From Escherichia coli (GTDB lineage Bacteria > Pseudomonadota > Gammaproteobacteria > Enterobacterales > Enterobacteriaceae): 64,000 nt of DNA. The position numbers and the translations under genes are program-made. Below are positions 9,686 to 32,100 of the stretch, in pieces; the stretch's first letter is position 1, and each line of letters starts with the position of its first letter. Location: assembly GCF_001677475.2 (NCBI RefSeq), contig NZ_CP015229.1; one strand, given 5' to 3'. The notes beneath the pieces are model-generated. The model had not been told where the DNA came from. It worked only from the letters and a program-made list of their open reading frames with translations, and ran no database searches.

Positions 9686-10897
<1,212 letters not shown>

Positions 10898-10993
10898 CCA
10901 GGATAATTAGCGAATATCTCAATGCCTGGGGCGTGGCGAGGTGCAAGAGTGTGTATTACGTTTAAATCACATTATCTTGCAAAGGGATTGGTT

Positions 10994-11416
10994 ATGAACT
11001 CACTACGTTATTTTGATTTTGGAGCTGCCCGCCCCGTTTTGTTATTAATTGCCCGTATCGCCGTGGTCTTAATTTTCATTATTTTTGGTTTTCCCAAAAT
11101 GATGGGCTTTGACGGTACGGTCCAATATATGGCCTCGCTGGGCGCGCCGATGCCGATGCTGGCAGCGATTATTGCGGTAGTTATGGAAGTGCCCGCCGCG
11201 ATATTAATCGTGCTTGGCTTTTTCACCCGTCCGCTGGCGGTGCTGTTTATTTTCTACACGCTGGGTACGGCGGTGATTGGTCACCATTACTGGGATATGA
11301 CCGGCGATGCGGTTGGGCCAAATATGATTAATTTCTGGAAGAATGTCAGTATCGCTGGCGCATTCCTGCTGTTGGCAATTACCGGGCCGGGGGCAATTTC
11401 TCTCGATCGGCGTTAG
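10994..11416 (+). CDS. yphA: DoxX-family inner-membrane protein YphA
   Basis: ORF 10922..11416 trimmed to MNSLRYF... (140 aa); strongly hydrophobic. Confidence 0.75.
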
Positions 11417-11419
11417 GAA

Positions 11420-11456
11420 AGATGCCGGATGCGGCGTGAACGCCTGATCCGGCATT
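11420..11456. repeat. REP element
   Basis: GATGCCGGATGCGGCGTGAACGCCTGATCCGGCAT palindrome between convergent yphA and yphB. Confidence 0.5.
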
Positions 11457-11463
11457 TTATAAA

Positions 11464-12336
11464 TTACAGTAACGCAACCCGCAACGACATCTCTGAAGTT
11501 GTTGATTCCCCTGGTGCAAGCGCAATGAGATCACCCCCTTCCGGGCGATGATGGTCATCCGGCGCATGGCTCATCGGTTCCAGACAGAAGAAATCAAACG
11601 CATATCCTTTATCAAACGCCGGGTCGGAAACAAAGATGAAATAACATGGTGCAGGTGGCGTCGTTTCCATGATGATGGCATAACCCTCCTGCGGCTGCTC
11701 GATGCGGGCCTGACCACTCCATCCGGCAAAGCCATTGTTTACCCACTGGCGCGGCAACGGCGCGAGCTGGTTGAAATCCAGCTCCTGCGGTAGCTGCTCG
11801 CAAAACTCACCCGCCAGCCACTGCTCCTGCTCCCGCCAGTAACCGCTCGCCTGCGCCTGAATCCGCGTTTGTGGTGACAACGGAAAATAAGGATGCCAGC
11901 CGGTACCAAATGGTAGCGTCTCTGCCCCTTGATTGGTGACAGAGAGCGTCACCGTCAGCGTATCTGCCGTTAAATGAAACGCCTGACTTACCCGATAGTG
12001 ATAAACACCGCTGCGATGTTCATACACCAGACACAAGCTATCTTCGCTGCGCGAGACACATTGCCACTGCCCCAGCCAGCCGTCGCCGTGCAGATAGTGC
12101 GCATCCCACTCAACATTCGGTTGCAGTTGATACTCACGCCCCTGCCAGACAAAACGATTGCCGCTCACCCGGTTTGCAAACGGCACCAGCGGAAAACAGG
12201 AGGCATCGGTTGCCACACCGCTTTTTTTACCAGGACGTAAGAGCGGCGTCGTATCACGCCAGAAACCTTCGATGACACCGCCCTGGTCAGAGACATCCAG
12301 CTTTAGCGGTCCGTGAGATAAGGTATAGATGGTCAT
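11464..12336 (-). CDS. yphB: Aldose 1-epimerase-family protein YphB
   Basis: 290-aa ORF recognised as YphB (mutarotase-like). Confidence 0.85.
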   Translation of the reverse strand: MTIYTLSHGPLKLDVSDQGGVIEGFWRDTTPLLRPGKKSGVATDASCFPLVPFANRVSGNRFVWQGREYQLQPNVEWDAHYLHGDGWLGQWQCVSRSEDSLCLVYEHRSGVYHYRVSQAFHLTADTLTVTLSVTNQGAETLPFGTGWHPYFPLSPQTRIQAQASGYWREQEQWLAGEFCEQLPQELDFNQLAPLPRQWVNNGFAGWSGQARIEQPQEGYAIIMETTPPAPCYFIFVSDPAFDKGYAFDFFCLEPMSHAPDDHHRPEGGDLIALAPGESTTSEMSLRVALL

Positions 12337-12347
12337 CCGCTAACTCC

Positions 12348-13409
12348 TTAATCCGGGAAGTTAATCACAACTTTCCCGCATTTGCCGCTCGCCATCAGCG
12401 CATAGGCATCACCTGCCTGTTCCAGCGAGAAGCGATGGGTAATGGCGTTACGCGGCCACAGTTTCCAGTCCGTCAGATCATGGGCGCATTTTTCCATATG
12501 GAACAGACTGGTCACCCAGGAGCCGATAATCCGCCGTTGATGGTGCATCAGATCGGCGCTGACCTCGAACTCCACTTTTCCGGTTTCTCCGATGTAAACC
12601 ACCCGTCCCCAGTCAGCGGTGGATCGCAGTGCCAGCAAGCGACCTGCGGCATTACCAGAACAATCGAGCGCAACATCCGCGCCACCGTGGGTGAGTTCGG
12701 CGATAATCTGCGGCAGACCTTCGGTGGTTGCTAAATAGCCGTGATCCATCACCCCTAACTGTTTTGCCATCGCCAGACGTTCCGGCAGCATATCAACGCC
12801 GATGATCCGTTTTGCACCGCGACCTTTCGCCAGCATCATCGCCATCATGCCGACTGGCCCCAGACCGACCACCAGCACGTTATCACTGCCGGAAACTTCG
12901 CCGCGCAAAATTCCTTCATACGCTGTACCAACGCCGCAACTGATAAACGCACCATCTTCGTAGCTCAGCGCATCCGGCAGGAGGATCAGATCTTTTTCTT
13001 CCGCCAGCAAGTATTCGGCATGACCGCCGTCACGCTGCCAGCCGTAAGCCGCTTTTCCTTCGCCAGTACAAGAAATAGGAAAACCGCGACGGCAGTTCGG
13101 GCAAAAACCACAGCCAGAAATGTGATACACCAGCACGCGGTCGCCCTCTTTAAAATGGCGGCAGCCTTGCCCCATCGCCACAATCTGCCCGCACGGTTCA
13201 TGACCGTTGATAAATCCCTGGTATAACGGTTTATCGGGTGCCGCTGCCGTGGCACGGTGTTGATGATAGATATAGTGGACATCACTTCCGCAAATCCCGG
13301 AGGATTTCATTTTGATCAGTACCTGGTTAATCCCCGGCGTCGGCACCGCAACTTCCCGCAGATCGACGGTCGAATTTCCTGGTAAATAAGCTGCCAGCAT
13401 CGTTTTCAT
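12348..13409 (-). CDS. yphC: Zn-dependent alcohol/polyol dehydrogenase (MDR family) YphC
   Basis: ORF trimmed to MKTMLAAY... (353 aa); GHEPCG zinc motif and GLGPVG NAD motif. Confidence 0.85.
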   Translation of the reverse strand: MKTMLAAYLPGNSTVDLREVAVPTPGINQVLIKMKSSGICGSDVHYIYHQHRATAAAPDKPLYQGFINGHEPCGQIVAMGQGCRHFKEGDRVLVYHISGCGFCPNCRRGFPISCTGEGKAAYGWQRDGGHAEYLLAEEKDLILLPDALSYEDGAFISCGVGTAYEGILRGEVSGSDNVLVVGLGPVGMMAMMLAKGRGAKRIIGVDMLPERLAMAKQLGVMDHGYLATTEGLPQIIAELTHGGADVALDCSGNAAGRLLALRSTADWGRVVYIGETGKVEFEVSADLMHHQRRIIGSWVTSLFHMEKCAHDLTDWKLWPRNAITHRFSLEQAGDAYALMASGKCGKVVINFPD

Positions 13410-13474
13410 AAATCCCTCATTAACAATACGATTAATTTTCATCCCTGCCGCACCCGCGCCAGGGGCGTTAAGGT

Positions 13475-14473
13475 TTAGCGTTTCGCTTTACTGCTACGCT
13501 GGGTCAGCAAGATATTCGCCAGCACCGCCACCACGATGATGACGCCGCGCACCACCTGCTGGAAAAAGGAGTTAATCCCTAGCAGCACCAGACCGTTACC
13601 GATTAGCGTAATCACCAACACACCAAGCAATGTACCAAACAGGGAACCGCGACCGCCGGAAAGTGCCGTACCACCGACCACGACCGCGGCGATGACGTCA
13701 AACTCCAGACCGTTTGCGGCACCTGCGTTACCGGAACCGAGGCGCGCCGCCAACAAAATGCCGGTCACCGCTGCTAATAATCCCGAAAGGGTAAAAATAA
13801 GAATGCGTACCCGACGAACGTTAATACCGCACAACTGCGCCGCCGTGGCATTACCGCCAACAGCAAAAACCGAGCGCCCGAAGGCGGTTTTGCGGCTAAT
13901 GAACACAAACAGCGCAAATAACACCATCATGATCAGCGCGGATACCGGCACACCGAGAAATTGTCCCCCCAGCCAGTCCAGCACTTCGTTTTCGTCAATC
14001 GGCACTGGCAAGGCGTTCGTCATAAACAGCCCCATTCCGCGCAGGGCGCTCCATAAACCCAGCGTGGCAACAAAACTTGGCACGTTAAACACGCCGCGCA
14101 GCACCCCGGCGAGCGTTCCCATCAGCGCGCCTAACAGCAACACCAGCAGACAAGCAATCGCCAGCGGAACTTCAAATTGCAGCAAAAATGCCAGGCACAC
14201 CGAGACAAAAGCCACCATCGGTCCAACGCTGACATCAATTTCACCGGAGATAATAATCAGCGTCATCGCCCAGGCGGCGATCCCGATGGTGGCGGCATCG
14301 CGCAGCACGTTCATCTGGTTATTCAATGAGATAAAGCCAGGCGCGTTCAGAGAGAAGACCAGATAAAGAATGGCAATCACCACCAGCAAACCGATCTCAT
14401 TAATATGGCGACTGACAAATTGTTTGAGCGAGACGCTCTTGCCCTGCGGCAATGGTAATGACGAAGCAGACAT
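13475..14473 (-). CDS. yphD: Sugar ABC transporter permease YphD
   Basis: 332-aa polytopic ORF, RbsC-like. Confidence 0.88.
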   Translation of the reverse strand: MSASSLPLPQGKSVSLKQFVSRHINEIGLLVVIAILYLVFSLNAPGFISLNNQMNVLRDAATIGIAAWAMTLIIISGEIDVSVGPMVAFVSVCLAFLLQFEVPLAIACLLVLLLGALMGTLAGVLRGVFNVPSFVATLGLWSALRGMGLFMTNALPVPIDENEVLDWLGGQFLGVPVSALIMMVLFALFVFISRKTAFGRSVFAVGGNATAAQLCGINVRRVRILIFTLSGLLAAVTGILLAARLGSGNAGAANGLEFDVIAAVVVGGTALSGGRGSLFGTLLGVLVITLIGNGLVLLGINSFFQQVVRGVIIVVAVLANILLTQRSSKAKR

Positions 14474-14497
14474 CTTCAGGTTCCTCGGTAAAATTCA

Positions 14498-16009
14498 TCA
14501 GTGCACAGACAGAATGGCGGACATCAGCTCATCCACATTGACCGGCGAGTGAAACTCCTGCGAGAACGTACCGTGCTGTAATAACAGGATGCGGTCACAC
14601 ACCAGCGGCAACTCCTCCACTTCACTGGAGATAAACACCACGCTTTTTCCTTCGGCAGCCAGCTCGCGGACAATACGATAAATCTGCTGTTTGGCTTCGA
14701 TATCGACGCCACGCGTTGGCTCGTCGAGCAACAAAATCTGGCTGGCGGCATAGACCCAACGACCGATCACCACTTTTTGCTGATTGCCGCCAGAAAGCGT
14801 GCCGATGGGCGTTTCGCTACTGGCGGCCTTGACCGTCATCCGCTGCATCACCTCTTCGGTCAGGCGGCGGATGGTGGACCATTGCAGCACGCCGTTGGCG
14901 CTGATTTTTTGCCGATTGGTCAGCACTGTATTTTCGTCAACGCCCAGCCAGGGAATGATCCCCGCTTCTTTGCGGTTTTCTGGCGTATAGCCAATGCCGC
15001 GTTTCAGCATGTCGCCGTAATCGGGGTGCGTGATTTTCTCGCCGTTGATAACAATTTCGCCCTGTTCATACGCTTCCAGCCCAACTATGGCTTTCAACAA
15101 TTCACTGCGCCCTGCCCCCAGCAGGCCAGCAATGCCGAGCACTTCGCCACGACGGAGCGTAAAGCTGATATCCTCCAGCTTGGGCTTATGGCGTAATGCA
15201 CGGACTTCCAGCACGGCCTGATCGACAATTTCCTGAGGGGAAACCGGCGCAATATCAACGTGATCGCGCCCGAGCATCAGCGACACAATATGATGCGTGG
15301 AGGTGTTTTCGAGCATCACATCGCCCGCCACCTGACCATCGCGCATAACGGTGGCACAGGAGGCAATGCGGCGAATTTCTTCCATCCGGTGGCTGACATA
15401 AATCACCGCCACGCCCAGTGCCGACATCTTTTTCACCGCACTGATCACCAGTTCAACTTCTGCACTGGCAAGCGAGCTGGTGGGTTCATCAAGAATGACC
15501 ACGCGCGGCTCGCCCTTCATCACCCGTGCAATTTCCACCAGTTGCTTTTGCGCCGGGCTTAGCGTTGAAACAAGTTGTTCAGGACTAACGTCAACGCCCA
15601 GCGCCTGTAAGCAACGTTGGGCATCCTGCGCCATTTGCAGGTAATCAATCATGCCGTTGCGGCGAGGCCACCGACCGAGGCAGAGGTTTTCCGCCACCGT
15701 TAGTCCCTCCACCAGACTTAACTCCTGATAAACCGCACGAACCCCCAGTTCAGCGGCACGGCGAGTCAACGTAGCTTCGTCACCTTCCAGTCGCGTCTCG
15801 CCAATCCAGATATCACCGCTGTCCGGACGTTCGCTACCGGTAAGCATTCGAATGAGGGTCGATTTGCCCGCGCCGTTTTTACCTAACAGCGCGCGAACTT
15901 CGCCTTTATTGAGCGTAAAGTTAACGTTATCCAGCGCAACGACGCCGGGATAACGCTTATTTCCTGCCACCATTTTTGCTACCGGGACTGCCTCTGTTGC
16001 CGTGAACAT
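14498..16009 (-). CDS. yphE: Sugar ABC transporter ATP-binding protein YphE (duplicated NBD)
   Basis: 503 aa; Walker A GKNGAGKST and signature LSGGNQQK. Confidence 0.9.
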   Translation of the reverse strand: MFTATEAVPVAKMVAGNKRYPGVVALDNVNFTLNKGEVRALLGKNGAGKSTLIRMLTGSERPDSGDIWIGETRLEGDEATLTRRAAELGVRAVYQELSLVEGLTVAENLCLGRWPRRNGMIDYLQMAQDAQRCLQALGVDVSPEQLVSTLSPAQKQLVEIARVMKGEPRVVILDEPTSSLASAEVELVISAVKKMSALGVAVIYVSHRMEEIRRIASCATVMRDGQVAGDVMLENTSTHHIVSLMLGRDHVDIAPVSPQEIVDQAVLEVRALRHKPKLEDISFTLRRGEVLGIAGLLGAGRSELLKAIVGLEAYEQGEIVINGEKITHPDYGDMLKRGIGYTPENRKEAGIIPWLGVDENTVLTNRQKISANGVLQWSTIRRLTEEVMQRMTVKAASSETPIGTLSGGNQQKVVIGRWVYAASQILLLDEPTRGVDIEAKQQIYRIVRELAAEGKSVVFISSEVEELPLVCDRILLLQHGTFSQEFHSPVNVDELMSAILSVH

Positions 16010-16031
16010 AGGAACCTCTGCGAATCAGCTA

Positions 16032-17015
16032 TTAGGGCAGACCATCAACGTGCGTTGCCAGCCACTGTTTACCGTCTTCCGTTTTGGTATAGAGATCGAT
16101 AGGCACCTGAATCACTTTGTCACCGTCGGCTTGTTTATTGATAACCTTCAATGTTTGCGCAAAAACAGCATTGCCCATTTTCTTACCGGAAATATCCACC
16201 ACCGCTTTCAGCACCTGGTTATTTTCCAGTTCCTGAGCAATTTCAGTCGTCATATCCGAACCGAAAACAGCAATTTTTCCGGCCTGATTTTGATTGCGTA
16301 CCGCTTTTACCGCGCCGAGTGTCGCACCGCCCGATTCCCCCATAATGGCGTTGAGATCCGGCGTGGAGATAATCAGTTTTTCACCAACGGAAATCGCTTT
16401 ATCTAAAACAGTCCCTTCCTGATTAGCGACAATTTGCGCGCCGGGAACCCGGGCTTTTAATACTTCTTCAAACCCTTTACGTCGTTGCACACAAACTTCA
16501 AAGGCTTCGCAATTGATGACGGCAATTTTCGGCTGGTCAATTTTGTTGGCAATAAAATAATCGGCGGCAGCGTTACCCAGTTTTTTACCAAATTCCAGCG
16601 GATCGCCGACCAGATACGCCGAGACATATTTATCGACACCCTTTTGATTAATACAGGTGTTGTAGCAAATCACCGGAATACCCGCTTCACTGGCGCGACG
16701 AACGGTACGGCTACTGCCATTTTCAGACACTGCCGATAAAATAATGGCATTGACATTACGCGCCACAAGGGTATCAACAAAGGTACTTTCTTTCGAAATA
16801 TCGCCCTGGGCGTTAGTTTCTATTAACTGAACCTGTACTGAAGAATCTTTTGCTGCATCCTGAACACCCTGACGCACACCGGCATAATATCCCTGAGTAT
16901 CAAGGTATATTGCACCAATGGTCATTTCTTTATCCGCAGCCCTGGCAAATAGTGCGCTACCTAATAGCGTAGCCATTAATAATAGATTACGGGTTGTTCT
17001 CATTTTTTTAGGCAT
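16032..17015 (-). CDS. yphF: Periplasmic sugar-binding protein YphF
   Basis: 327 aa with N-terminal signal peptide; RbsB-like fold. Confidence 0.88.
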   Translation of the reverse strand: MPKKMRTTRNLLLMATLLGSALFARAADKEMTIGAIYLDTQGYYAGVRQGVQDAAKDSSVQVQLIETNAQGDISKESTFVDTLVARNVNAIILSAVSENGSSRTVRRASEAGIPVICYNTCINQKGVDKYVSAYLVGDPLEFGKKLGNAAADYFIANKIDQPKIAVINCEAFEVCVQRRKGFEEVLKARVPGAQIVANQEGTVLDKAISVGEKLIISTPDLNAIMGESGGATLGAVKAVRNQNQAGKIAVFGSDMTTEIAQELENNQVLKAVVDISGKKMGNAVFAQTLKVINKQADGDKVIQVPIDLYTKTEDGKQWLATHVDGLP

Positions 17016-17111
17016 AGTGTCTCCTGTAGGGTTTTTATTAACAACGGCTTATTCTAATTATTTTGTGATGAGCGGCAGCGCGTGCCGCTCAAATATTACA
17101 GTTAATAGGGT

Positions 17112-20100
17112 TTAGTGAACGGAGTTAAAAATAAAAGGCATCACGGTGGTGAATAATGCCGCTTTCGGCCAGGCCGGATTAATCGCCGTCAATTCAGCGC
17201 GAACAGATTCATATTGCGCAATCTCCCCTAATCCCGCTGCCGCCAGCATCGCCACCATCAGGCATTTTTCTTTATGCTGCTGTTGTAAATCGCCATACAG
17301 CGACAATAAATCAGGTTGTGAAACAGCGAAGAAATCCGCTTCGATACTGGTTTTCGCCATCTCTTGCGCCCACTGTTTCATTTCACTAAACAGTTGCTGT
17401 GCAGTTTGCTTTTCACCCAGCAGTCGCAGCGCCATCCCTTGCCAGAAGAGATAATCAACTGGCTGATCGTTGTAATAACTGTGGATATTGATGGTGCGAT
17501 CGCCGGTCGCCGCCAGGCGTAAACAACGCGTCGCTTCAGTTTCATCGCCCTGCGCGTTGGCGCATATTGCCAGCCAGAACCAGATGTCGTTATCAGTTTG
17601 CCCCGGTAAACGGCCTTCGCTTAAATTCTCCGGATAATGCAGCGCGGCATGAAGCAGTTCACTGGCCTGCTGCGGCTCTCTGGCATCAAGATGCTGCCAG
17701 GCGCGTAATAACTGGTTGAGGATAAACTGGCTGGTGACCTTCCCTTCCCCACCTTCCCACGGGTGGAATTTGCGCGTGGCGAGAATGTCCGCCGCTTTGT
17801 TTGCCTGACCGGTGAGATGCCACAAATTGAGCAGTTCTGCGGTCATGTCGTCGCGTTTCAGCGCAATTTCCAGATTATTTTCCAGACGCGCCAGTCGTTT
17901 CTCCGGTGTGGCTCCGCTTAACTTATCCAGCAAATCCCGTTCGAAAAGCAGACGTGCATCCTGCGGCGCAAGCTGATAAGCATTATCAAGATAACGCGCG
18001 GCCAGCTCATAATCGTGTTGCTTATTCCACGCATGGATCGCTAATCCGCGCCAGCCGTCGGCAAACTCCGGCGACATCTCTACGCAACGTTGCCATAAAG
18101 TAATGGCTTTGTTGTAGCTGCGCTTGTTGTAGTAGAAGCAGGCCAGTAAATGACGGGCAAACCAGCACTCTTCAATACTCTCCAGCGCCGCCACTTCTTC
18201 CAGCGTATTCGGGAAACGGACAAACTGTGGGAAGACATCAATGGCTTTTGTGACCAGTTCGCCGCGTTCAGCTTTCGGCAGCAAGCTGGCTTGCAAGTAA
18301 AGCGGCAGCGTGCGCTGGCAGTCCAGTGCGTTCAGCATCTCTGCCGCCAGGGTGGGCATTCCCCAGTTAATCAGTTGCCCGGCGGTCATCAGGGCGTTAA
18401 CGTCGCGTCCCTGACACAGACCGCGCCACTGCGTGAGAGCTGATTCGCTACGACCATCGAACCAGTTCAGCCTCCACAGAGTGGCGTTCAGCGGATAATC
18501 GCGCAGCAGTTTCTCGCGCTGCAAACGCGCGTTGTCCTGACGACCACTTAACACCAGCAGCAGATTATGCAGGCAAAGCACTTCCTGATTGGTTGGGCAG
18601 GCGCGAAGACTTTGTTGGCAAAAATCCAGACCAGCATCGAAGTGACCATTACGCGCCGCCAGTCGTGCCAGACCATAATAGCCGCCTGCTTTACTATTGC
18701 CGCTCCAGACCGCACGCCAGAAATCCTCTTCGGCTTGTTGATATTGTCCCTGACGTTCGTAAGCACTGGCGCGAATCAAACTCGCCTGTCCGCACTGCGG
18801 ATTTTTGTTCAGCGCATGTGCGCGTTTCAGCGCCTGAGTGGCATACGCCACCGCTTGCGGGAAATCTGCGCGGTTATATTCCAGCATCGCCAGCGCCAGA
18901 TTACAGCGATAATCCAGCGGATCCAGCGCCACGCCGCGCAGGTAGTAATCGAACGGTGAACGGCTGGCGTGATGATATTGCTCCAGATGCTGACCGATAA
19001 ACCAGGCTTCATCTGTACTGGTAATGTCTTGTGCTGCCAGTGGCGCTTTGGCGACGTCCGGCAACGGCAACTCTTGCGGCTGATGTTCCTGATAACTCAG
19101 TACAATATTGCCATCCGCATCGGAAAGTTCGATGGTCATTCTGTCCGGATCAATACCGTGCAATACCCCCTGGATGGCGGTCGCTGGCGTCAGGGCAACG
19201 GCATCATCAAGTAACGCTTCGCGCTTGCCTATTTCACGGATCGCCAGTCGGTATCCGTTCAACGGGGAGATGGCATACAGCCCCCACTCAATTCCCCGCT
19301 CGCTACGCTGTAATTTAATTACCGCATCGCGGGAGGCGTTTTGCACCATGCCTAAAGAATGGTAAGGCAGGAAATACTGCTCAAAACCCTTCTCTTCGTA
19401 AGCATCAAGCCAGGTAAAATCGGGCTGGTTATCGGCAAAAATGCCGGTCATCAGCTCGATATACGGACCGTTATTGTCGGTCAGACTCTTATCCCACGCC
19501 TGGCCAAATTCACTGTGTCCCCAGCTCCACTGTTTTTTACCCGGCGCAATGTGGTGGTTGGCAACGTGTAATAAACCGCCATCTTCATCGTGACACCACG
19601 CGCCAACAAAATCGTACTGCGATTTTTCTGCCATATATGAGGTAGGAACAGGCACGTTTTTATAACGCGAAATGTCCACTCCAGCGGAGTAGTCCACTTT
19701 GTAGTAAGTGCCGGTGGCGATGGGGAAAGCGGAGACGGCCCGTTTGCCGTGATCAAAGACCGCCGTTACATCCGGTGGGAACACGCTTTGATGTCCTTCA
19801 CCCCCTTTCACTGCCGGGTTGGCCCACCACAAGAAATGACGCGGCGTGGCGTTGCCGTTATAGACGCGGCTGGCAATTTCCAGTGCCGCCCGGTCAGGGC
19901 GCAAGGTGAAACCTGTCATCACCTGTAAACCGTGCATCGGCTCCGTTTCGCCGACCCACACGGTTTGTGCGCCGTCTTCATGGGCTTCGAGGGTGAAATC
20001 GACGGGCATAAAGGTGGTCGGGCGATGGTGTTGCGGCCAGTTAAACTCAATCCCGCCGGAGATCCACGGCCCCAGCAGCCCCACCAGCGCCGGTTTAATG

Positions 20101-20393
20101 ACTTCATTATGATAGACAAAATCGCGCTGTTTCACTTTATCCCACGCGCGATGCACCCGACCGCCCAGCTCCGGCAGGATCATCACTTTGATGTAGTCGT
20201 TTTCCAGCCACACCGCCTGCCAGGATTTCAGGGTTTTCTGCTCGCTCAGCGTATCGGTCACGCCGTAGGGATAAACCGCGCCGGACGATCCCTGATAAAC
20301 GCGATTTTCCAGGAACATAGGATGTATATCCTGCGGCCCGGTTTCATAGGTCGGGATCTCAACGCGCTCTTGCCACACTTTTACTGGAGTCAT
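17112..20393 (-). CDS. yphG: Large TPR-repeat protein YphG, function unknown
   Basis: ORF 17112..20486 (1124 aa) trimmed to MTPVKVWQ... (1093 aa); multiple TPR-like repeats in the C-terminal two-thirds. Confidence 0.8.
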   Translation of the reverse strand: MTPVKVWQERVEIPTYETGPQDIHPMFLENRVYQGSSGAVYPYGVTDTLSEQKTLKSWQAVWLENDYIKVMILPELGGRVHRAWDKVKQRDFVYHNEVIKPALVGLLGPWISGGIEFNWPQHHRPTTFMPVDFTLEAHEDGAQTVWVGETEPMHGLQVMTGFTLRPDRAALEIASRVYNGNATPRHFLWWANPAVKGGEGHQSVFPPDVTAVFDHGKRAVSAFPIATGTYYKVDYSAGVDISRYKNVPVPTSYMAEKSQYDFVGAWCHDEDGGLLHVANHHIAPGKKQWSWGHSEFGQAWDKSLTDNNGPYIELMTGIFADNQPDFTWLDAYEEKGFEQYFLPYHSLGMVQNASRDAVIKLQRSERGIEWGLYAISPLNGYRLAIREIGKREALLDDAVALTPATAIQGVLHGIDPDRMTIELSDADGNIVLSYQEHQPQELPLPDVAKAPLAAQDITSTDEAWFIGQHLEQYHHASRSPFDYYLRGVALDPLDYRCNLALAMLEYNRADFPQAVAYATQALKRAHALNKNPQCGQASLIRASAYERQGQYQQAEEDFWRAVWSGNSKAGGYYGLARLAARNGHFDAGLDFCQQSLRACPTNQEVLCLHNLLLVLSGRQDNARLQREKLLRDYPLNATLWRLNWFDGRSESALTQWRGLCQGRDVNALMTAGQLINWGMPTLAAEMLNALDCQRTLPLYLQASLLPKAERGELVTKAIDVFPQFVRFPNTLEEVAALESIEECWFARHLLACFYYNKRSYNKAITLWQRCVEMSPEFADGWRGLAIHAWNKQHDYELAARYLDNAYQLAPQDARLLFERDLLDKLSGATPEKRLARLENNLEIALKRDDMTAELLNLWHLTGQANKAADILATRKFHPWEGGEGKVTSQFILNQLLRAWQHLDAREPQQASELLHAALHYPENLSEGRLPGQTDNDIWFWLAICANAQGDETEATRCLRLAATGDRTINIHSYYNDQPVDYLFWQGMALRLLGEKQTAQQLFSEMKQWAQEMAKTSIEADFFAVSQPDLLSLYGDLQQQHKEKCLMVAMLAAAGLGEIAQYESVRAELTAINPAWPKAALFTTVMPFIFNSVH

Positions 20394-20510
20394 GGTGCCC
20401 TCAATATTAACAAGACATACTGAATTAAAAGATTTGTGGCAGTGTATTGAACAATCTGGCAATGTTTTCGCGGAATAATCACGCAATTAACTAAACAAGG
20501 TTTAGTAAAG

Positions 20511-21704
20511 ATGAGAGCCTGCATTAACAATCAACAGATCCGCCACCATAACAAATGCGTGATTCTGGAACTGCTGTACCGGCAAAAGCGCGCCAATAAA
20601 TCAACGCTGGCCCGGCTGGCGCAAATTTCGATTCCGGCGGTCAGTAATATTTTGCAGGAGCTGGAAAACGAAAAACGGGTGGTGAATATCGATGATGAAA
20701 GCCAGACGCGCGGGCATAGTAGCGGTACATGGCTGATTGCGCCGGAAGGTGACTGGACGCTGTGTCTGAACGTGACGCCCACCAGTATTGAGTGTCAGGT
20801 TGCTAATGCTTGTTTAAGTCCGAAAGGTGAATTTGAGTATTTACAGATTGATGCACCGACGCCGCAGGCGCTGCTGTCCGAAATCGAAAAATGCTGGCAT
20901 CGCCACCGTAAATTGTGGCCGGGTCGTACCATCAATCTGGCGCTGGCAATCCACGGTCAGGTTGATCCAGTGACCGGTGTGTCGCAAACCATGCCGCAAG
21001 CGCCGTGGACAACGCCGGTTGAGGTAAAGTATCTGCTGGAAGAGAAGCTCGGCATTCGGGTGATGGTCGATAATGACTGCGTGATGCTGGCGCTGGCGGA
21101 GAAATGGCAAAATAATTCGCAGGGCCGGGATTTCTGCGTGATCAACGTTGATTACGGCATTGGCTCGTCGTTCGTGATTAACGAGCAAATTTATCGCGGC
21201 AGTTTGTATGGTAGCGGACAGATTGGTCACACCATCGTTAACCCGGATGGCGTCGTCTGCGACTGCGGACGTTATGGCTGCCTGGAAACCGTCGCCTCGT
21301 TAAGCGCATTAAAAAAACAGGCGCGGGTATGGCTAAAATCACAACCGGTTAATACTCAGCTTGATCCTGAAAAACTGACTACCGCGCAGTTAATCGCTGC
21401 CTGGCAGAGTGGAGAACCGTGGATCACCAGTTGGGTTGATCGCTCTGCCAACGCCATTGGTTTGAGTCTGTATAACTTCCTCAACATCCTCAATATTAAT
21501 CAGATTTGGTTGTACGGTCGCAGTTGTGCCTTTGGTGAGCACTGGCTTAATACCATTATTCGCCAGACGGGATTTAACCCGTTCGACCGCGACGAAGGAC
21601 CGAGCGTGAAAGCAACGCAAATTGGCTTCGGGCAATTAAGCCGCGCACAACAGGTGCTGGGGATTGGCTATTTGTATGTTGAGACGCAGTTACGACAGAT
21701 TTGA
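20511..21704 (+). CDS. yphH: ROK/NagC-family transcriptional regulator YphH
   Basis: 397 aa; N-terminal HTH plus ROK sugar-kinase-like domain with CxCGxxGC zinc motif; divergent from yphG. Confidence 0.85.
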   Translation: MRACINNQQIRHHNKCVILELLYRQKRANKSTLARLAQISIPAVSNILQELENEKRVVNIDDESQTRGHSSGTWLIAPEGDWTLCLNVTPTSIECQVANACLSPKGEFEYLQIDAPTPQALLSEIEKCWHRHRKLWPGRTINLALAIHGQVDPVTGVSQTMPQAPWTTPVEVKYLLEEKLGIRVMVDNDCVMLALAEKWQNNSQGRDFCVINVDYGIGSSFVINEQIYRGSLYGSGQIGHTIVNPDGVVCDCGRYGCLETVASLSALKKQARVWLKSQPVNTQLDPEKLTTAQLIAAWQSGEPWITSWVDRSANAIGLSLYNFLNILNINQIWLYGRSCAFGEHWLNTIIRQTGFNPFDRDEGPSVKATQIGFGQLSRAQQVLGIGYLYVETQLRQI

Positions 21705-28669: not shown

Positions 28670-28853
28670 CAACAAAGCCGGGAATTACCCGGCTTTGTTA
28701 TGGAATAAGGCGGTGCCTAACTCGACGTTTCGCCCGATGGTTGATATAGCTACGCTGATATCAGAAGTTGGACGGCAGGCACCTTGTTGTGCGTCATTCG
28801 AATTTTATGTAGCACGTCCCGAAGGGGCTGACATAAGTCGGTGAATGAGCCAC
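28670..28853 (-). ncRNA. glmY: GlmY small RNA
   Basis: Minus-strand read AGUGGCUCAUUCACCGACUUAUGUCAGCCCCUUCGGGACGUGC... ending in terminator hairpin GCCGGGUAAUUCCCGGC plus U-tract; recognised as GlmY. Confidence 0.8.
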
Positions 28854-28865
28854 TGCTTACTATTA

Positions 28866-28881
28866 TGCAGTAACTGTGCCA
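28866..28881 (-). promoter_or_regulatory. Sigma54 (-24/-12) promoter of glmY
   Basis: Minus-strand TGGCAC-AGTTA-CTGCA about 12 nt upstream of the GlmY 5' end. Confidence 0.7.
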
Positions 28882-28970
28882 ATAAAGAAAATAGTTTGGT
28901 AACGTACTGATTATACGTTGTTTTGAGGGATTTATGGCTTCTTCGCTATTTGAATGTAAATCAGCCACTG

Positions 28971-28988
28971 TGTCGCTAAAAAGAGACA
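28971..28988. promoter_or_regulatory. GlrR-type binding site 1 (TGTC-N10-GACA)
   Basis: TGTCGCTAAAAAGAGACA. Confidence 0.6.
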
Positions 28989-29033
28989 ACTTAAGATAAA
29001 CTTATTAGATTACAATAAAATCAATCATTTAAG

Positions 29034-29051
29034 TGTCGCCAGAAAGCGACA
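29034..29051. promoter_or_regulatory. GlrR-type binding site 2 (TGTC-N10-GACA)
   Basis: TGTCGCCAGAAAGCGACA. Confidence 0.6.
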
Positions 29052-29066
29052 CGGTAAACCACCCAT

Positions 29067-29084
29067 TGTCGTGATTTACAGACA
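29067..29084. promoter_or_regulatory. GlrR-type binding site 3 (TGTC-N10-GACA)
   Basis: TGTCGTGATTTACAGACA. Confidence 0.6.
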
Positions 29085-29086
29085 CA

Positions 29087-29112
29087 AAAAAGCTCCCTGA
29101 GTTGGGAGCTTA
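29087..29112 (-). terminator. Rho-independent terminator of purL
   Basis: Minus-strand GCUCCCAACUCAGGGAGC followed by UUUUUU. Confidence 0.6.
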
Positions 29113-29117
29113 TAATA

Positions 29118-29165
29118 GCGGTTGGTATTTAATGCCGGATGCGGCGTGAATGCCTCATCCGGGCT
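29118..29165. repeat. REP element
   Basis: GCCGGATGCGGCGTGAATGCCTCATCCGGGC palindrome just 3' of purL. Confidence 0.5.
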
Positions 29166-29187
29166 GCAAAACCAATGGGCTGACGAC

Positions 29188-32100
29188 TTACCCCAACTGC
29201 TTACGTGCATTGCGGAAAATGCGCATCCATGGGCCATCCTCGCCCCAGTTTTCCGGATGCCAGGAGTTGCTGACAGTACGGAAAACACGTTCCGGGTGCG
29301 GCATCATAATGGTGACTCGACCGCTTTCAGTCGTGACCGCCGTAATACCGTTCGGAGAACCGTTCGGGTTAGCCGGGTAGGTTTCAGTGACTTTGCCGAA
29401 GTTATCGACATAGCGCAGTGCCACCAGCCCTTTGCTTTCCAGTGCCGCCAGATGCGCCGCATCACGCACTTCCACGCGCCCTTCACCATGAGAGACAGCA
29501 ATCGGCATTTGCGAGCCCACCATCCCCTGCAACAGCAGCGACGGGCTTTGGGTCACTTCAACCAGGCTGAAACGCGCTTCAAAGCGATCGGAGGTATTGC
29601 GCACAAAACGTGGCCACAACTCACTACCTGGGATCAGTTCACGCAGATTAGACATCATCTGGCAACCGTTACATACCCCCAGCGCCAGCGTTTGCGAACG
29701 GTGGAAGAAGGTTGCAAACTCATCGCGTACACGGTCATTGAACAGGATAGACTTCGCCCAACCTTCACCGGCACCCAGCACATCACCGTAGGAGAAACCA
29801 CCGCACGCGACCAGGGCGTGGAAATCCTCCAGTCCCGTGCGTCCAGTCAGCAGGTCGCTCATATGCACGTCGATAGCATCAAAGCCCGCACGGTGGAAAG
29901 CTGCCGCCATTTCAACATGCGAGTTCACGCCCTGCTCACGCAGTACGGCAACTTTCGGACGTGCGCCAGTGGCAATATACGGTGCTGCCACATCTTCGTT
30001 GATATCGAACGACAGTTTTACATTCAGGCCCGGATCGGCGTCGTTAGATTTCGCCTGATGCTCCTGATCGGCACACTCCGGGTTGTCACGCAGGCGCTGC
30101 ATCTGCCAGGTAGTTTCTGCCCACCAGACACGCAACGTAGTGCGGCTTTCGCTGAATACAGTCTGCCCGTTGGCGGTAATCACAAAACGGTCACCGGAAA
30201 CCGCCTGGCCAACATAATGGACGCAATCAGCAAGCCCATGCTTTGCCAGTACCGCTTCAACTGCTTCACGGTCAGCGGCTCGAACCTGAATCACCGCCCC
30301 CAGTTCTTCGTTAAACAGCGCCGCCAGGCGATCGTCACCCAGTGTGGCGATATTCGCTTCAATGCCGCAATGACCGGCAAACGCCATTTCCGCCAGCGTT
30401 ACCAGCAGGCCGCCATCAGAGCGGTCGTGATACGCCAGCAGCTTACGCTGTGCAACCAGCGCCTGAATCGCGTCATAGAAGCCTTTCAGTTGCGCGACGT
30501 CGCGTACATCTGCCGGTTTGTCGCCAAGCTGACGATAAACCTGCGCCAGCGCCGTTGCGCCCAGCGCGTTATTGCCTTTGCCCAAATCAATCAGCAGCAG
30601 TGCGTTATCTTCGGTAGAAAGCTGCGGCGTGATGGTGTGACGTACATCTTCCACGCGGGCAAATGCGGAAATCACCAGCGACAGCGGCGACGTCATTTCG
30701 CGCTCTTCGTTACCTTCCTGCCAGCGGGTTTTCATCGACATAGAGTCTTTACCCACCGGGATCGTCAGGCCCAGCGCCGGACAAAGCTCTTCGCCCACAG
30801 CTTTAACGGCTTCATACAGGCCCGCATCTTCGCCTGGATGACCTGCCGCTGCCATCCAGTTCGCGGAAAGTTTAATGCGTTTGATATCGCCAATCTGTGT
30901 TGCGGCAATATTGGTTAACGCTTCACCGACCGCCAGACGGGCAGATGCGGCGAAATCCAGCAGCGCAACCGGCGCACGCTCGCCAATTGCCATCGCTTCG
31001 CCGTAGTAGCTATCGAGGCTGGCGGTAGTGACCGCGCAGTTAGCGACCGGCACCTGCCACGGACCAACCATCTGATCGCGCGCCACCATGCCGGTTACGC
31101 TGCGGTCACCGATGGTCACCAGGAAAGTTTTCTCTGCCACAGTCGGCAGATGCAGTACGCGTTTCACCGCGTCAGCAATGGTGATCCCTTCACGGGCCAG
31201 CGCATCGCCCTTCGCTTTCAGCGTTTGTACATCGCGGGTCATTTTCGGCGTTTTACCAAGCAGCACGTCCAGCGGCAGATCGATTGGCTGATTATCAAAA
31301 TGACGATCGTGCAGAGAAAGATGCAGTTCTTCAGTCGCTTCACCAATCACCGCGTAGGGTGCGCGTTCACGCTTACACAGTTCGTCAAACAGCGGTAACT
31401 GATCGGCAGCAACCGCCAGCACGTAGCGTTCCTGGGATTCGTTACACCAGATTTCCAGCGGGCTCATGCCCGGTTCGTCGCTCAGAATATCGCGCAGTTC
31501 GAATTTACCGCCGCGCCCGCCGTCGCTCACCAGTTCCGGCATGGCGTTAGAAAGACCGCCTGCGCCAACGTCGTGGATAAACAGGATTGGGTTGGCATCA
31601 CCAAGCTGCCAGCAACGGTCGATCACTTCCTGGCAGCGACGCTCCATCTCCGGGTTGTCGCGCTGTACGGAAGCAAAGTCGAGGTCCGCATCAGACTGAC
31701 CAGATGCCATGGAAGACGCCGCGCCGCCGCCAAGACCGATGTTCATTGCCGGGCCGCCGAGAACGACCAGCTTCGCACCAACGTTGATCTCGCCTTTTTG
31801 TACGTGATCGGCGCGAATGTTGCCGATCCCACCCGCCAGCATGATCGGTTTGTGATAACCGCGCAGCTCTTCGCCATTGTGGCTGTTCACTTTTTCTTCA
31901 TAAGTACGGAAGTAGCCGTTCAGTGCCGGGCGACCAAATTCGTTGTTAAACGCCGCGCCGCCCAGCGGGCCTTCGGTCATGATGTCCAGCGCGGTGACAA
32001 TGCGCTCAGGCTTACCGAAATCTTCTTCCCACGGCTGTTCAAAGCCCGGAATACGCAAGTTGGATACGGAGAAACCGACCAGACCGGCTTTCGGCTTTGC

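Follow-up and report, generated by a model that had tools for sequence, protein, structure and literature searches.

YphG of Escherichia coli, a mutarotase-fold and TPR-solenoid protein that is likely a carbohydrate enzyme

What does a protein of more than a thousand residues do at the head of a bacterial sugar-transport operon? The question is raised by yphG, which lies on the minus strand at positions 17112-20393 of a 64,000-nucleotide stretch of Escherichia coli DNA (contig NZ_CP015229.1, assembly GCF_001677475.2; "the window" below means this whole stretch). The gene is among the largest in E. coli that remain without an assigned function, and the substrate of the yph operon is not known. 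A previous reading made from the letters alone (the sequence-only reading) recognised the protein as YphG, over 1000 residues long, which is correct: it has 1093 residues and RefSeq names it yphG. That reading left two roles open for YphG, that of a scaffold and that of an enzyme active on carbohydrates and equipped with a TPR platform. Here we describe the fold, conserved residues, cytoplasmic location, synteny and selection of YphG, and argue that it is likely a carbohydrate enzyme and unlikely to be a scaffold of the neighbouring YphDEF transporter.

Fold and conserved residues of YphG

We searched the protein against domain libraries, as the sequence-only reading had proposed for exposing a well-characterised enzyme family. 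No such family was found, and the sole family match in Pfam was to DUF5107 (PF17128; E 2.6e-55, residues 39-327, model positions 5-284 of 310). YphG had no Pfam match that would make it a member of Aldose_epim by sequence, and none to known catalytic-domain models of established glycoside hydrolase (GH) or polysaccharide lyase (PL) families. The repeats were registered by TPR_16 at residues 499-560 (E 2.9e-6) and 754-813 (E 5e-4), with the remaining TPR units below threshold, and NCBIfam returned weak TPR-type matches only.

A first AlphaFold2 (AF2) run on a shallow Enterobacterales alignment left conserved loops of the N-terminal domain at a pLDDT below 50. The final model, built from a diverse alignment of 47 sequences, had a pLDDT of 93.7 and a pTM of 0.91, and the following parts were distinguished in the protein:

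19359..20393, minus strand: N-terminal beta-rich domain, residues 1-345, comprising DUF5107, with a predicted aldose-1-epimerase (mutarotase) beta-sandwich fold; it carries His123 (20025-20027), His215 (19749-19751) and the invariant Glu313 (19455-19457)
19074..19358, minus strand: second, small beta-sandwich, residues 346-440, the least conserved part (AF2 secondary structure; mean conservation 0.32; inside the 544 residues aligned to PDB 5cd6)
17115..19016, minus strand: TPR-type alpha-solenoid, residues 460-1093, of about 30 helices, with polar residues conserved at Q472, Y483, W563, R782, E818 and E880 and with conserved loops between helices at 876-887, 921-937, 973-984 and 1019-1029

The sequence-only reading had described a non-repeat N-terminal third followed by TPR-like units over the rest of the protein. 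The N-terminal part is indeed free of repeats, but it amounts to about 40% of the protein and consists of two beta domains. What follows is a TPR-type solenoid as described, although only the two segments named above are significant against the Pfam TPR models.

Structure comparison assigned the modelled N-terminal domain to the mutarotase beta-sandwich fold, while the helical part resembled open TPR superhelices such as those of O-GlcNAc transferase (OGT), SPINDLY (SPY), Ski3 and Ctr9, and alanine is kept at the typical TPR packing positions. A closed (alpha/alpha)6 catalytic barrel, as in GH15, GH65, GH94 and the heparinases, was considered for the helical part and rejected, since the fold matches are open TPR superhelices. 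Furthermore, AlphaFold Database models of relatives with 18-33% identity superposed on YphG over their full length with TM-scores of 0.80-0.93. Thus, independent models agree over the whole protein, and the relative placement of its domains is conserved.

The architecture of about 1090 residues is widespread: more than 100 clusters at 50% identity retain it, the most remote at about 28% identity, and 1154 representatives were found with an E of 1e-30 or better. We counted residue conservation in 126 homologues reaching down to 27% identity. Glu313 was present in all 126, His123 and His215 in 124 each, and His122 in 123. E64, D85, K86, K100, E116, R124, N179, N192, K287, D306, N322, Q323, D325 and E333 were also conserved in at least 90%, and some 65 positions of the N-terminal domain reach this level altogether. 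Mean conservation was 0.61 in the N-terminal domain, compared to 0.32 for the small sandwich that follows and 0.40 for the solenoid, where the best-conserved stretches include inter-helix loops and the motif FHPWEGGEG is strongly kept.

We also compared the family with a profile of GalM and YphB using hhalign in local mode. The result was not significant (E 0.1, probability below 1%); in this alignment the QHHR motif (His122/123) lay opposite the histidine of the GalM HGG motif, and YIELM (Glu313) opposite the catalytic glutamate of LEpQ. From the sequence comparisons we put forward catalytic roles for Glu313, His122/123 and His215 as hypotheses, and claim no residue equivalence with GalM.

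Genomic context, compartment and proposed role

The surroundings of yphG were compared across 80 loci containing orthologues of at least 39% identity, whose neighbouring open reading frames (ORFs) were clustered and the cluster representatives annotated. The loci came from Enterobacterales, Aeromonas and Photobacterium, many Bacteroidota (soil, gut and marine), Bacillota (Lachnospiraceae, Paenibacillus, Bacillus and others) and Bifidobacterium, and a neighbour was counted when its gene lay within four genes of the YphG orthologue. A regulator of the AraC or ROK type was present in 55 of the 80 loci and a transporter in 49. The individual classes, including carriers of the major facilitator superfamily (MFS) and ATP-binding cassette (ABC) importers, were as follows:

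AraC-type regulator: 42/80 loci
ROK regulator: 13/80 loci, directly beside yphG in 12/80
XylE-like MFS sugar porter: 39/80 loci, often the immediate neighbour
CUT2 ABC ATPase: 11/80 loci
GPH symporters, including a MelB equivalog: 3/80 loci
GH2 close to the Bacteroides exo-beta-1,4-galactosidases BT4151 and BT4156: 30/80 loci
GH35: 8/80 loci
GH97 or GH36, alpha-galactosidase types: 9/80 loci
GalM or YphB-type mutarotase: 11/80 loci, and 19/80 when counted within 7 kb

Some loci were minimal modules of AraC regulator, MFS porter and YphG. In Aeromonas and Serratia a ROK gene is divergent from YphG and is followed by an MFS porter and an aldose epimerase, and loci of marine Flavobacteriia additionally contained sulfatases and an SGNH-type gene. 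A locus from a Lachnospiraceae metagenome-assembled genome (L046) carried YphG, a CUT2 binding protein, ATPase and permease, and a Zn-dehydrogenase, as in E. coli and in the Enterobacterales loci L007-L011. This order, common to Lachnospiraceae and Enterobacterales, points to an ancient or horizontally transferred cassette.

The sequence-only reading had found it unusual that such a protein should sit among sugar-transport genes. On the contrary, pairing with a transporter is the most conserved feature of the family. Obligate co-occurrence with a YphDEF-type ABC importer was not found, an ABC ATPase being present in only 11 of the 80 loci. The type of importer is interchangeable (MFS in 39, ABC in 11 and GPH/MelB in 3 of 80), which argues against a scaffold specific to YphDEF, and an accessory subunit or scaffold of that importer was rejected. 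Thus, of the two roles left open before, the scaffold, in its YphDEF form, did not survive the exchange of the transporter for MFS or GPH carriers in most lineages, while the carbohydrate-active enzyme gained from the mutarotase fold, from synteny with importers and galactosidases, and from the relatives described next.

None of the 80 YphG orthologues has a signal peptide; their sequences start directly with M-x-x-VKVW. YphG is therefore cytoplasmic and acts on a compound delivered by an importer. Of the neighbouring GH2 and GH35 enzymes, those of Bacteroidota have signal or lipoprotein peptides, and those of Bacillota have none. Sec signal peptides were found in about 22 of the 126 homologues, among the distant relatives of 27-31% identity. 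Among distant relatives, one lies within a polysaccharide utilisation locus (PUL) with SusC/D, GH16 and sulfatases; in another case the gene next downstream encodes a protein with a carbohydrate-binding module of family 9 (CBM9); P0258 (1417 residues) has a C-terminal CBM9-like domain (E 5e-8); and P0199 (1399 residues) has an extra C-terminal domain of the endonuclease/exonuclease/phosphatase family (E 4.9e-19). Exported, PUL-encoded and CBM-linked members are what would be expected of a family of carbohydrate-active enzymes, and not of a cytoplasmic partner of a regulator.

In the window, yphG is accompanied by the following genes:

20511..21704, plus strand: yphH, divergent ROK-family regulator (NCBIfam NagC and Mlc matches; RefSeq)
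16032-17015, minus strand: yphF, binding protein (RefSeq)
14498-16009, minus strand: yphE, ATPase (RefSeq)
13475-14473, minus strand: yphD, permease (RefSeq)
12348-13442, minus strand: yphC, Zn-dependent dehydrogenase of the polyol/sugar dehydrogenase family
11464-12336, minus strand: yphB, aldose 1-epimerase

YphDEF (13475..17015, minus strand) is a CUT2-type ABC importer of the monosaccharide class, with NCBIfam matches to AraG, AraH, RbsC and the allose and MglB binding proteins. PDB searches with YphF and YphC returned no liganded close homologue that names a substrate, and YphH is described in the literature only as an uncharacterised ROK repressor.

We propose, with moderate confidence, that YphG is a cytoplasmic carbohydrate-active enzyme, or at the least a sugar-binding module of catalytic type, which works on the anomeric centre of a galacto-type sugar brought in by an importer, and that it belongs to a widespread, uncharacterised DUF5107-TPR family. 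Catalysis itself, the residue roles, the substrate class and the order of the steps are what we infer in the following scheme. The sugar would enter through the transporter encoded alongside, which is YphDEF in E. coli and an MFS sugar porter or GPH symporter in other lineages, and would be bound in a pocket of the N-terminal aldose-1-epimerase-fold domain. There, Glu313 together with His123 and His215 would carry out acid/base chemistry at the anomeric centre. The TPR solenoid would be a fixed structural part of the enzyme, serving as a clamp, lid or oligomerisation surface and not as a free docking arm. A substrate of galacto configuration would be the most likely: YphG could cleave a small galactoside, or it could isomerise or anomerise galactose or a related sugar. 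The resulting aldose would be handed on to the mutarotase YphB and, in E. coli, also to the dehydrogenase YphC, with YphH as the local regulator of expression.

The two kinds of chemistry draw on different observations. Monosaccharide-class importers and the periplasmic exo-galactosidases of Bacteroidota favour isomerisation or anomerisation over cleavage, whereas the mutarotases in the same operon, the large conserved surface, the GPH importers and the secreted or CBM9-linked paralogues favour cleavage of a glycoside. By analogy with the neighbouring enzymes, one may speculate that YphG acts in nature on compounds such as galactobioses, galactosylglycerol derived from galactolipids, galactinol or the Gal-Rha stubs of pectin. 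More tentatively still, the DUF5107-TPR proteins as a whole may form a new family of carbohydrate-active enzymes, in which a TPR-clamped sandwich of the free-mutarotase type is catalytic and cleaves or isomerises a galacto-configured sugar or small galactoside. They could then represent a previously unrecognised cytoplasmic step of galactan or galactoside metabolism common to Enterobacterales, Bacteroidota, Bacillota and bifidobacteria, while the secreted paralogues would work in PULs.

Several points weigh against an enzyme of this kind. No activity has been reported for any DUF5107-TPR member, and we found no paper, NCBIfam model or RefSeq name assigning a function: the literature searched gives none for YphG, DUF5107, 5cd6 or the yph operon, and neither the NCBIfam models nor the RefSeq names give one for YphG. 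To our knowledge, no characterised glycoside hydrolase has a free-standing mutarotase fold as its catalytic domain. The profile similarity to aldose epimerases falls short of significance (hhalign E 0.1), and the histidine that serves as catalytic acid in mutarotases has no identified equivalent, His215 being a candidate. That the conserved residues cluster in one pocket and are contacted by TPR loops is likewise something we infer. Finally, CUT2 ABC importers and XylE-like porters usually carry monosaccharides, and transporters of this class fit an isomerase or anomerase better than a glycosidase.

These points leave room for two other accounts of YphG. It might be a large sugar mutarotase or anomerase that, for example, converts the beta-galactose released by retaining GH2 or GH35 enzymes into the alpha anomer for galactokinase, the TPR part merely oligomerising or localising the protein. 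An invariant glutamate and histidine colinear with the GalM catalytic motifs, the linkage to beta-galactosidases and monosaccharide-class importers, and the minimal AraC-MFS-YphG modules, which require no other dedicated enzyme, all speak for this. We nevertheless consider it improbable: 19 of the 80 loci have a separate YphB or GalM within 7 kb, and the E. coli operon itself includes one; a conserved solenoid of 630 residues and about 65 N-domain positions conserved in at least 90% of homologues go far beyond the needs of a GalM; mutarotation would be of no obvious use to the secreted, PUL-encoded relatives; and no significant sequence match to Aldose_epim was found. Alternatively, YphG could be a non-catalytic sensor or scaffold, whose mutarotase-like domain binds the imported sugar and whose TPR part binds a regulator, transporter or enzymes. 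TPR solenoids usually mediate contacts between proteins, as the structural matches to OGT, SPY, Ski3 and Ctr9 recall; a regulator and a transporter are constant neighbours of YphG; and no catalytic activity is known for the DUF5107-TPR family. However, the potential partners vary by lineage (ROK or AraC; ABC, MFS or GPH) with no fixed partner evident, the AraC and ROK regulators have ligand-binding domains of their own, and some relatives are exported, periplasmic PUL proteins or CBM9 fusions. Moreover, the invariant Glu/His set and an N-domain dN/dS of 0.006 resemble an active site, and the overall shape is rigidly conserved. We regard this second account as slightly less probable again than a mutarotase.

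The preferred reading, a cytoplasmic enzyme acting on an imported galacto-type sugar, gives a testable frame made up of a mutarotase-fold active site (Glu313, His123, His215), the cytoplasm, and a cross-phylum link to galactose-releasing enzymes and to importers of galactose or galactosides. If the family is catalytic, it would be a new enzyme family in the PULs of gut and marine bacteria and would provide a substrate for an orphan E. coli sugar operon; if YphG is only a mutarotase or a sensor, the result would be of local interest for the annotation of E. coli.

Gene extent, selection and the yph operon

The ORF list and translation give yphG as 1093 codons followed by a TAA stop. A nucleotide match annotated as yphG was found in 5422 of 5426 complete E. 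coli genomes at 90-97% identity, with at least 80% of the query covered in 5419, and synteny was identical to that of a K-12-like genome (yphH and glyA upstream, yphFEDCB downstream). The identical protein is already held at NCBI as "DUF5107 domain-containing protein [Escherichia coli]", a name that the 2026 copies of RefSeq and NCBIfam used here both retain. Thus, yphG of E. coli is a catalogued and annotated gene; the object is not new, and its function is uncharacterised.

The same frame remains open upstream as far as a TTG at 20486, and the sequence-only reading preferred the shorter start to this extension of 31 codons. The count is exact and the preference was right: ATG 20393 is the correct start, because a Shine-Dalgarno sequence lies 4 nt 5' of it, RefSeq uses the same ATG, the aligned methionine is the first residue in 48 of 48 close homologues, and stop codons interrupt the upstream frame of Enterobacter and Budvicia, where TTGAGGG and the ATG are kept. 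The features at this end of the gene are:

17112..20393, minus strand: yphG coding sequence (ORF and translation, RefSeq start, identical NCBI protein, dN/dS 0.067)
20398..20402, minus strand: Shine-Dalgarno GAGGG of yphG, kept across genera together with the ATG
20394..20486, minus strand: 31-codon in-frame extension from TTG, non-coding, part of the yphH-yphG divergent control region (stops in Enterobacter and Budvicia; RefSeq start); it would end 25 bp from the yphH ATG

The dN/dS of yphG was 0.067 against the K-12-like allele and lay at 0.055-0.064 when a further E. coli, E. albertii and an Enterobacter served for comparison, with values of 0.006-0.03 in the N-terminal domain. The gene is functional and under strong purifying selection, and its N-terminal domain is exceptionally constrained. 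These data also bear on whether yphG might be dispensable or decaying, or its ORF mis-called. In favour of this, no phenotype or function of yphG has been reported in the literature searched, and the yphH-yphG spacer showed no sigma-70 consensus promoter. Against it, 5419 of 5426 complete E. coli genomes carry an intact copy, comparison with four alleles or species gives a dN/dS of 0.06-0.07, full-length orthologues occur in four phyla and the structure prediction is confident. The conservation data rule this explanation out, and we assign it a practically negligible probability.

The yphG allele in the window reaches at best 96.8% identity to any of 5422 complete E. coli genomes, while glyA, at a distance of 1.4 kb, reaches 99.5%. 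A few E. coli records at NCBI do contain the identical YphG protein. Compared to the K-12-like genome, yphG falls to 90.6% in a 500-bp segment starting at 19113 (a dip at about 19113-19613, within residues ~260-430), and the dS of residues 346-459 is 0.43. The dip suggests a recombined or unusually old allele patch. A second dip lies at 28758-29257, near qseE/qseG, with 92.6% identity to the K-12-like genome in surroundings of 96-99%.

The gene order is glyA and yphH, the latter divergent from yphG-yphF-yphE-yphD-yphC-yphB, followed by yphA and the hca genes. yphG is the first, promoter-proximal gene of yphGFEDCB; it is not embedded in the transporter operon, as the sequence-only reading had it, but stands ahead of yphF-E-D-C-B. 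Promoter and terminator scans of 10800-21000 gave nothing above chance in the yphH-yphG spacer. An 18-nt sequence, GTATGTCTTGTTAATATT, at 20403-20420 directly 5' of the yphG Shine-Dalgarno, is near-identical from E. coli to Enterobacter (loci L001 and L007-L010), in a spacer that otherwise drifts, and may be an operator for YphH or a promoter element. Between yphG and yphF lies one further element:

17069..17091, minus strand: intercistronic hairpin with a 9-bp perfect stem and a 5-nt loop, without a U tract (sequence, RNA fold)

The hairpin reads TGAGCGGCA CGCGC TGCCGCTCA, has a folding energy of -16 kcal/mol (z -3.6) and is unchanged in two further E. coli loci. Its possible roles are stabilisation or processing of the mRNA, by which it would set the ratio of yphG to transporter expression, or the binding of a protein to the palindrome. 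Beyond yphB, yphA (10922-11416, plus strand) has 164 codons from its first ATG compared to 140 in the RefSeq yphA (DoxX family) of the K-12-like record, and its start may have been over-called by the mechanical ORF list; the protein also has a weak NCBIfam match to an HvfX-type Cu-binding maturation protein.

Comparison with known systems

A relative of known structure is PDB 5cd6 (BDI_1685 of Parabacteroides distasonis), a structural-genomics "TPR-domain containing protein" of 580 residues for which the literature search found neither a function nor a publication. It is a true homologue of YphG (phmmer E 3e-20, residues 39-344) and, by alignment, shares His123, His215, Lys287 and Glu313. However, it is half as long: most of the solenoid is absent, and with it the conserved loops that surround Glu880 towards the C terminus.

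O-GlcNAc transferase and SPINDLY, the top structural matches of the TPR part, resemble YphG in joining a long TPR superhelix to a sugar-handling domain. In these proteins the catalytic domain is a C-terminal glycosyltransferase (GT) of family GT41, and the TPR part selects protein substrates. YphG, in contrast, is without a GT domain, has the reverse domain order and is found in a catabolic context.

GalM and other aldose 1-epimerases (Aldose_epim; 1l7j, 3mwx and E. coli YphB, 3nre) are matched by YphG in the order of two conserved residues, although only in the non-significant profile alignment: a histidine in the first third and a glutamate near the C-terminal end of the domain fall there in the order of the GalM catalytic residues. 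GalM-type mutarotases likewise occur in sugar-utilisation operons beside galactosidases. Unlike GalM, YphG has many more invariant residues, has its domain joined to a further beta-sandwich and to a TPR solenoid of 630 residues, and coexists with canonical mutarotases in one operon. A mutarotase-like sandwich is also found in GH2 (domain 5), GH38, GH94, PL4 and PL26, whose carbohydrate-degrading context and PUL membership are shared by the YphG family. In PL4 this sandwich is itself catalytic, whereas in most such hydrolases, phosphorylases and lyases it is accessory to a TIM-barrel or (alpha/alpha)6 catalytic domain, which YphG does not have. In structure, YphG is less similar to these multi-domain enzymes than to the free mutarotases.

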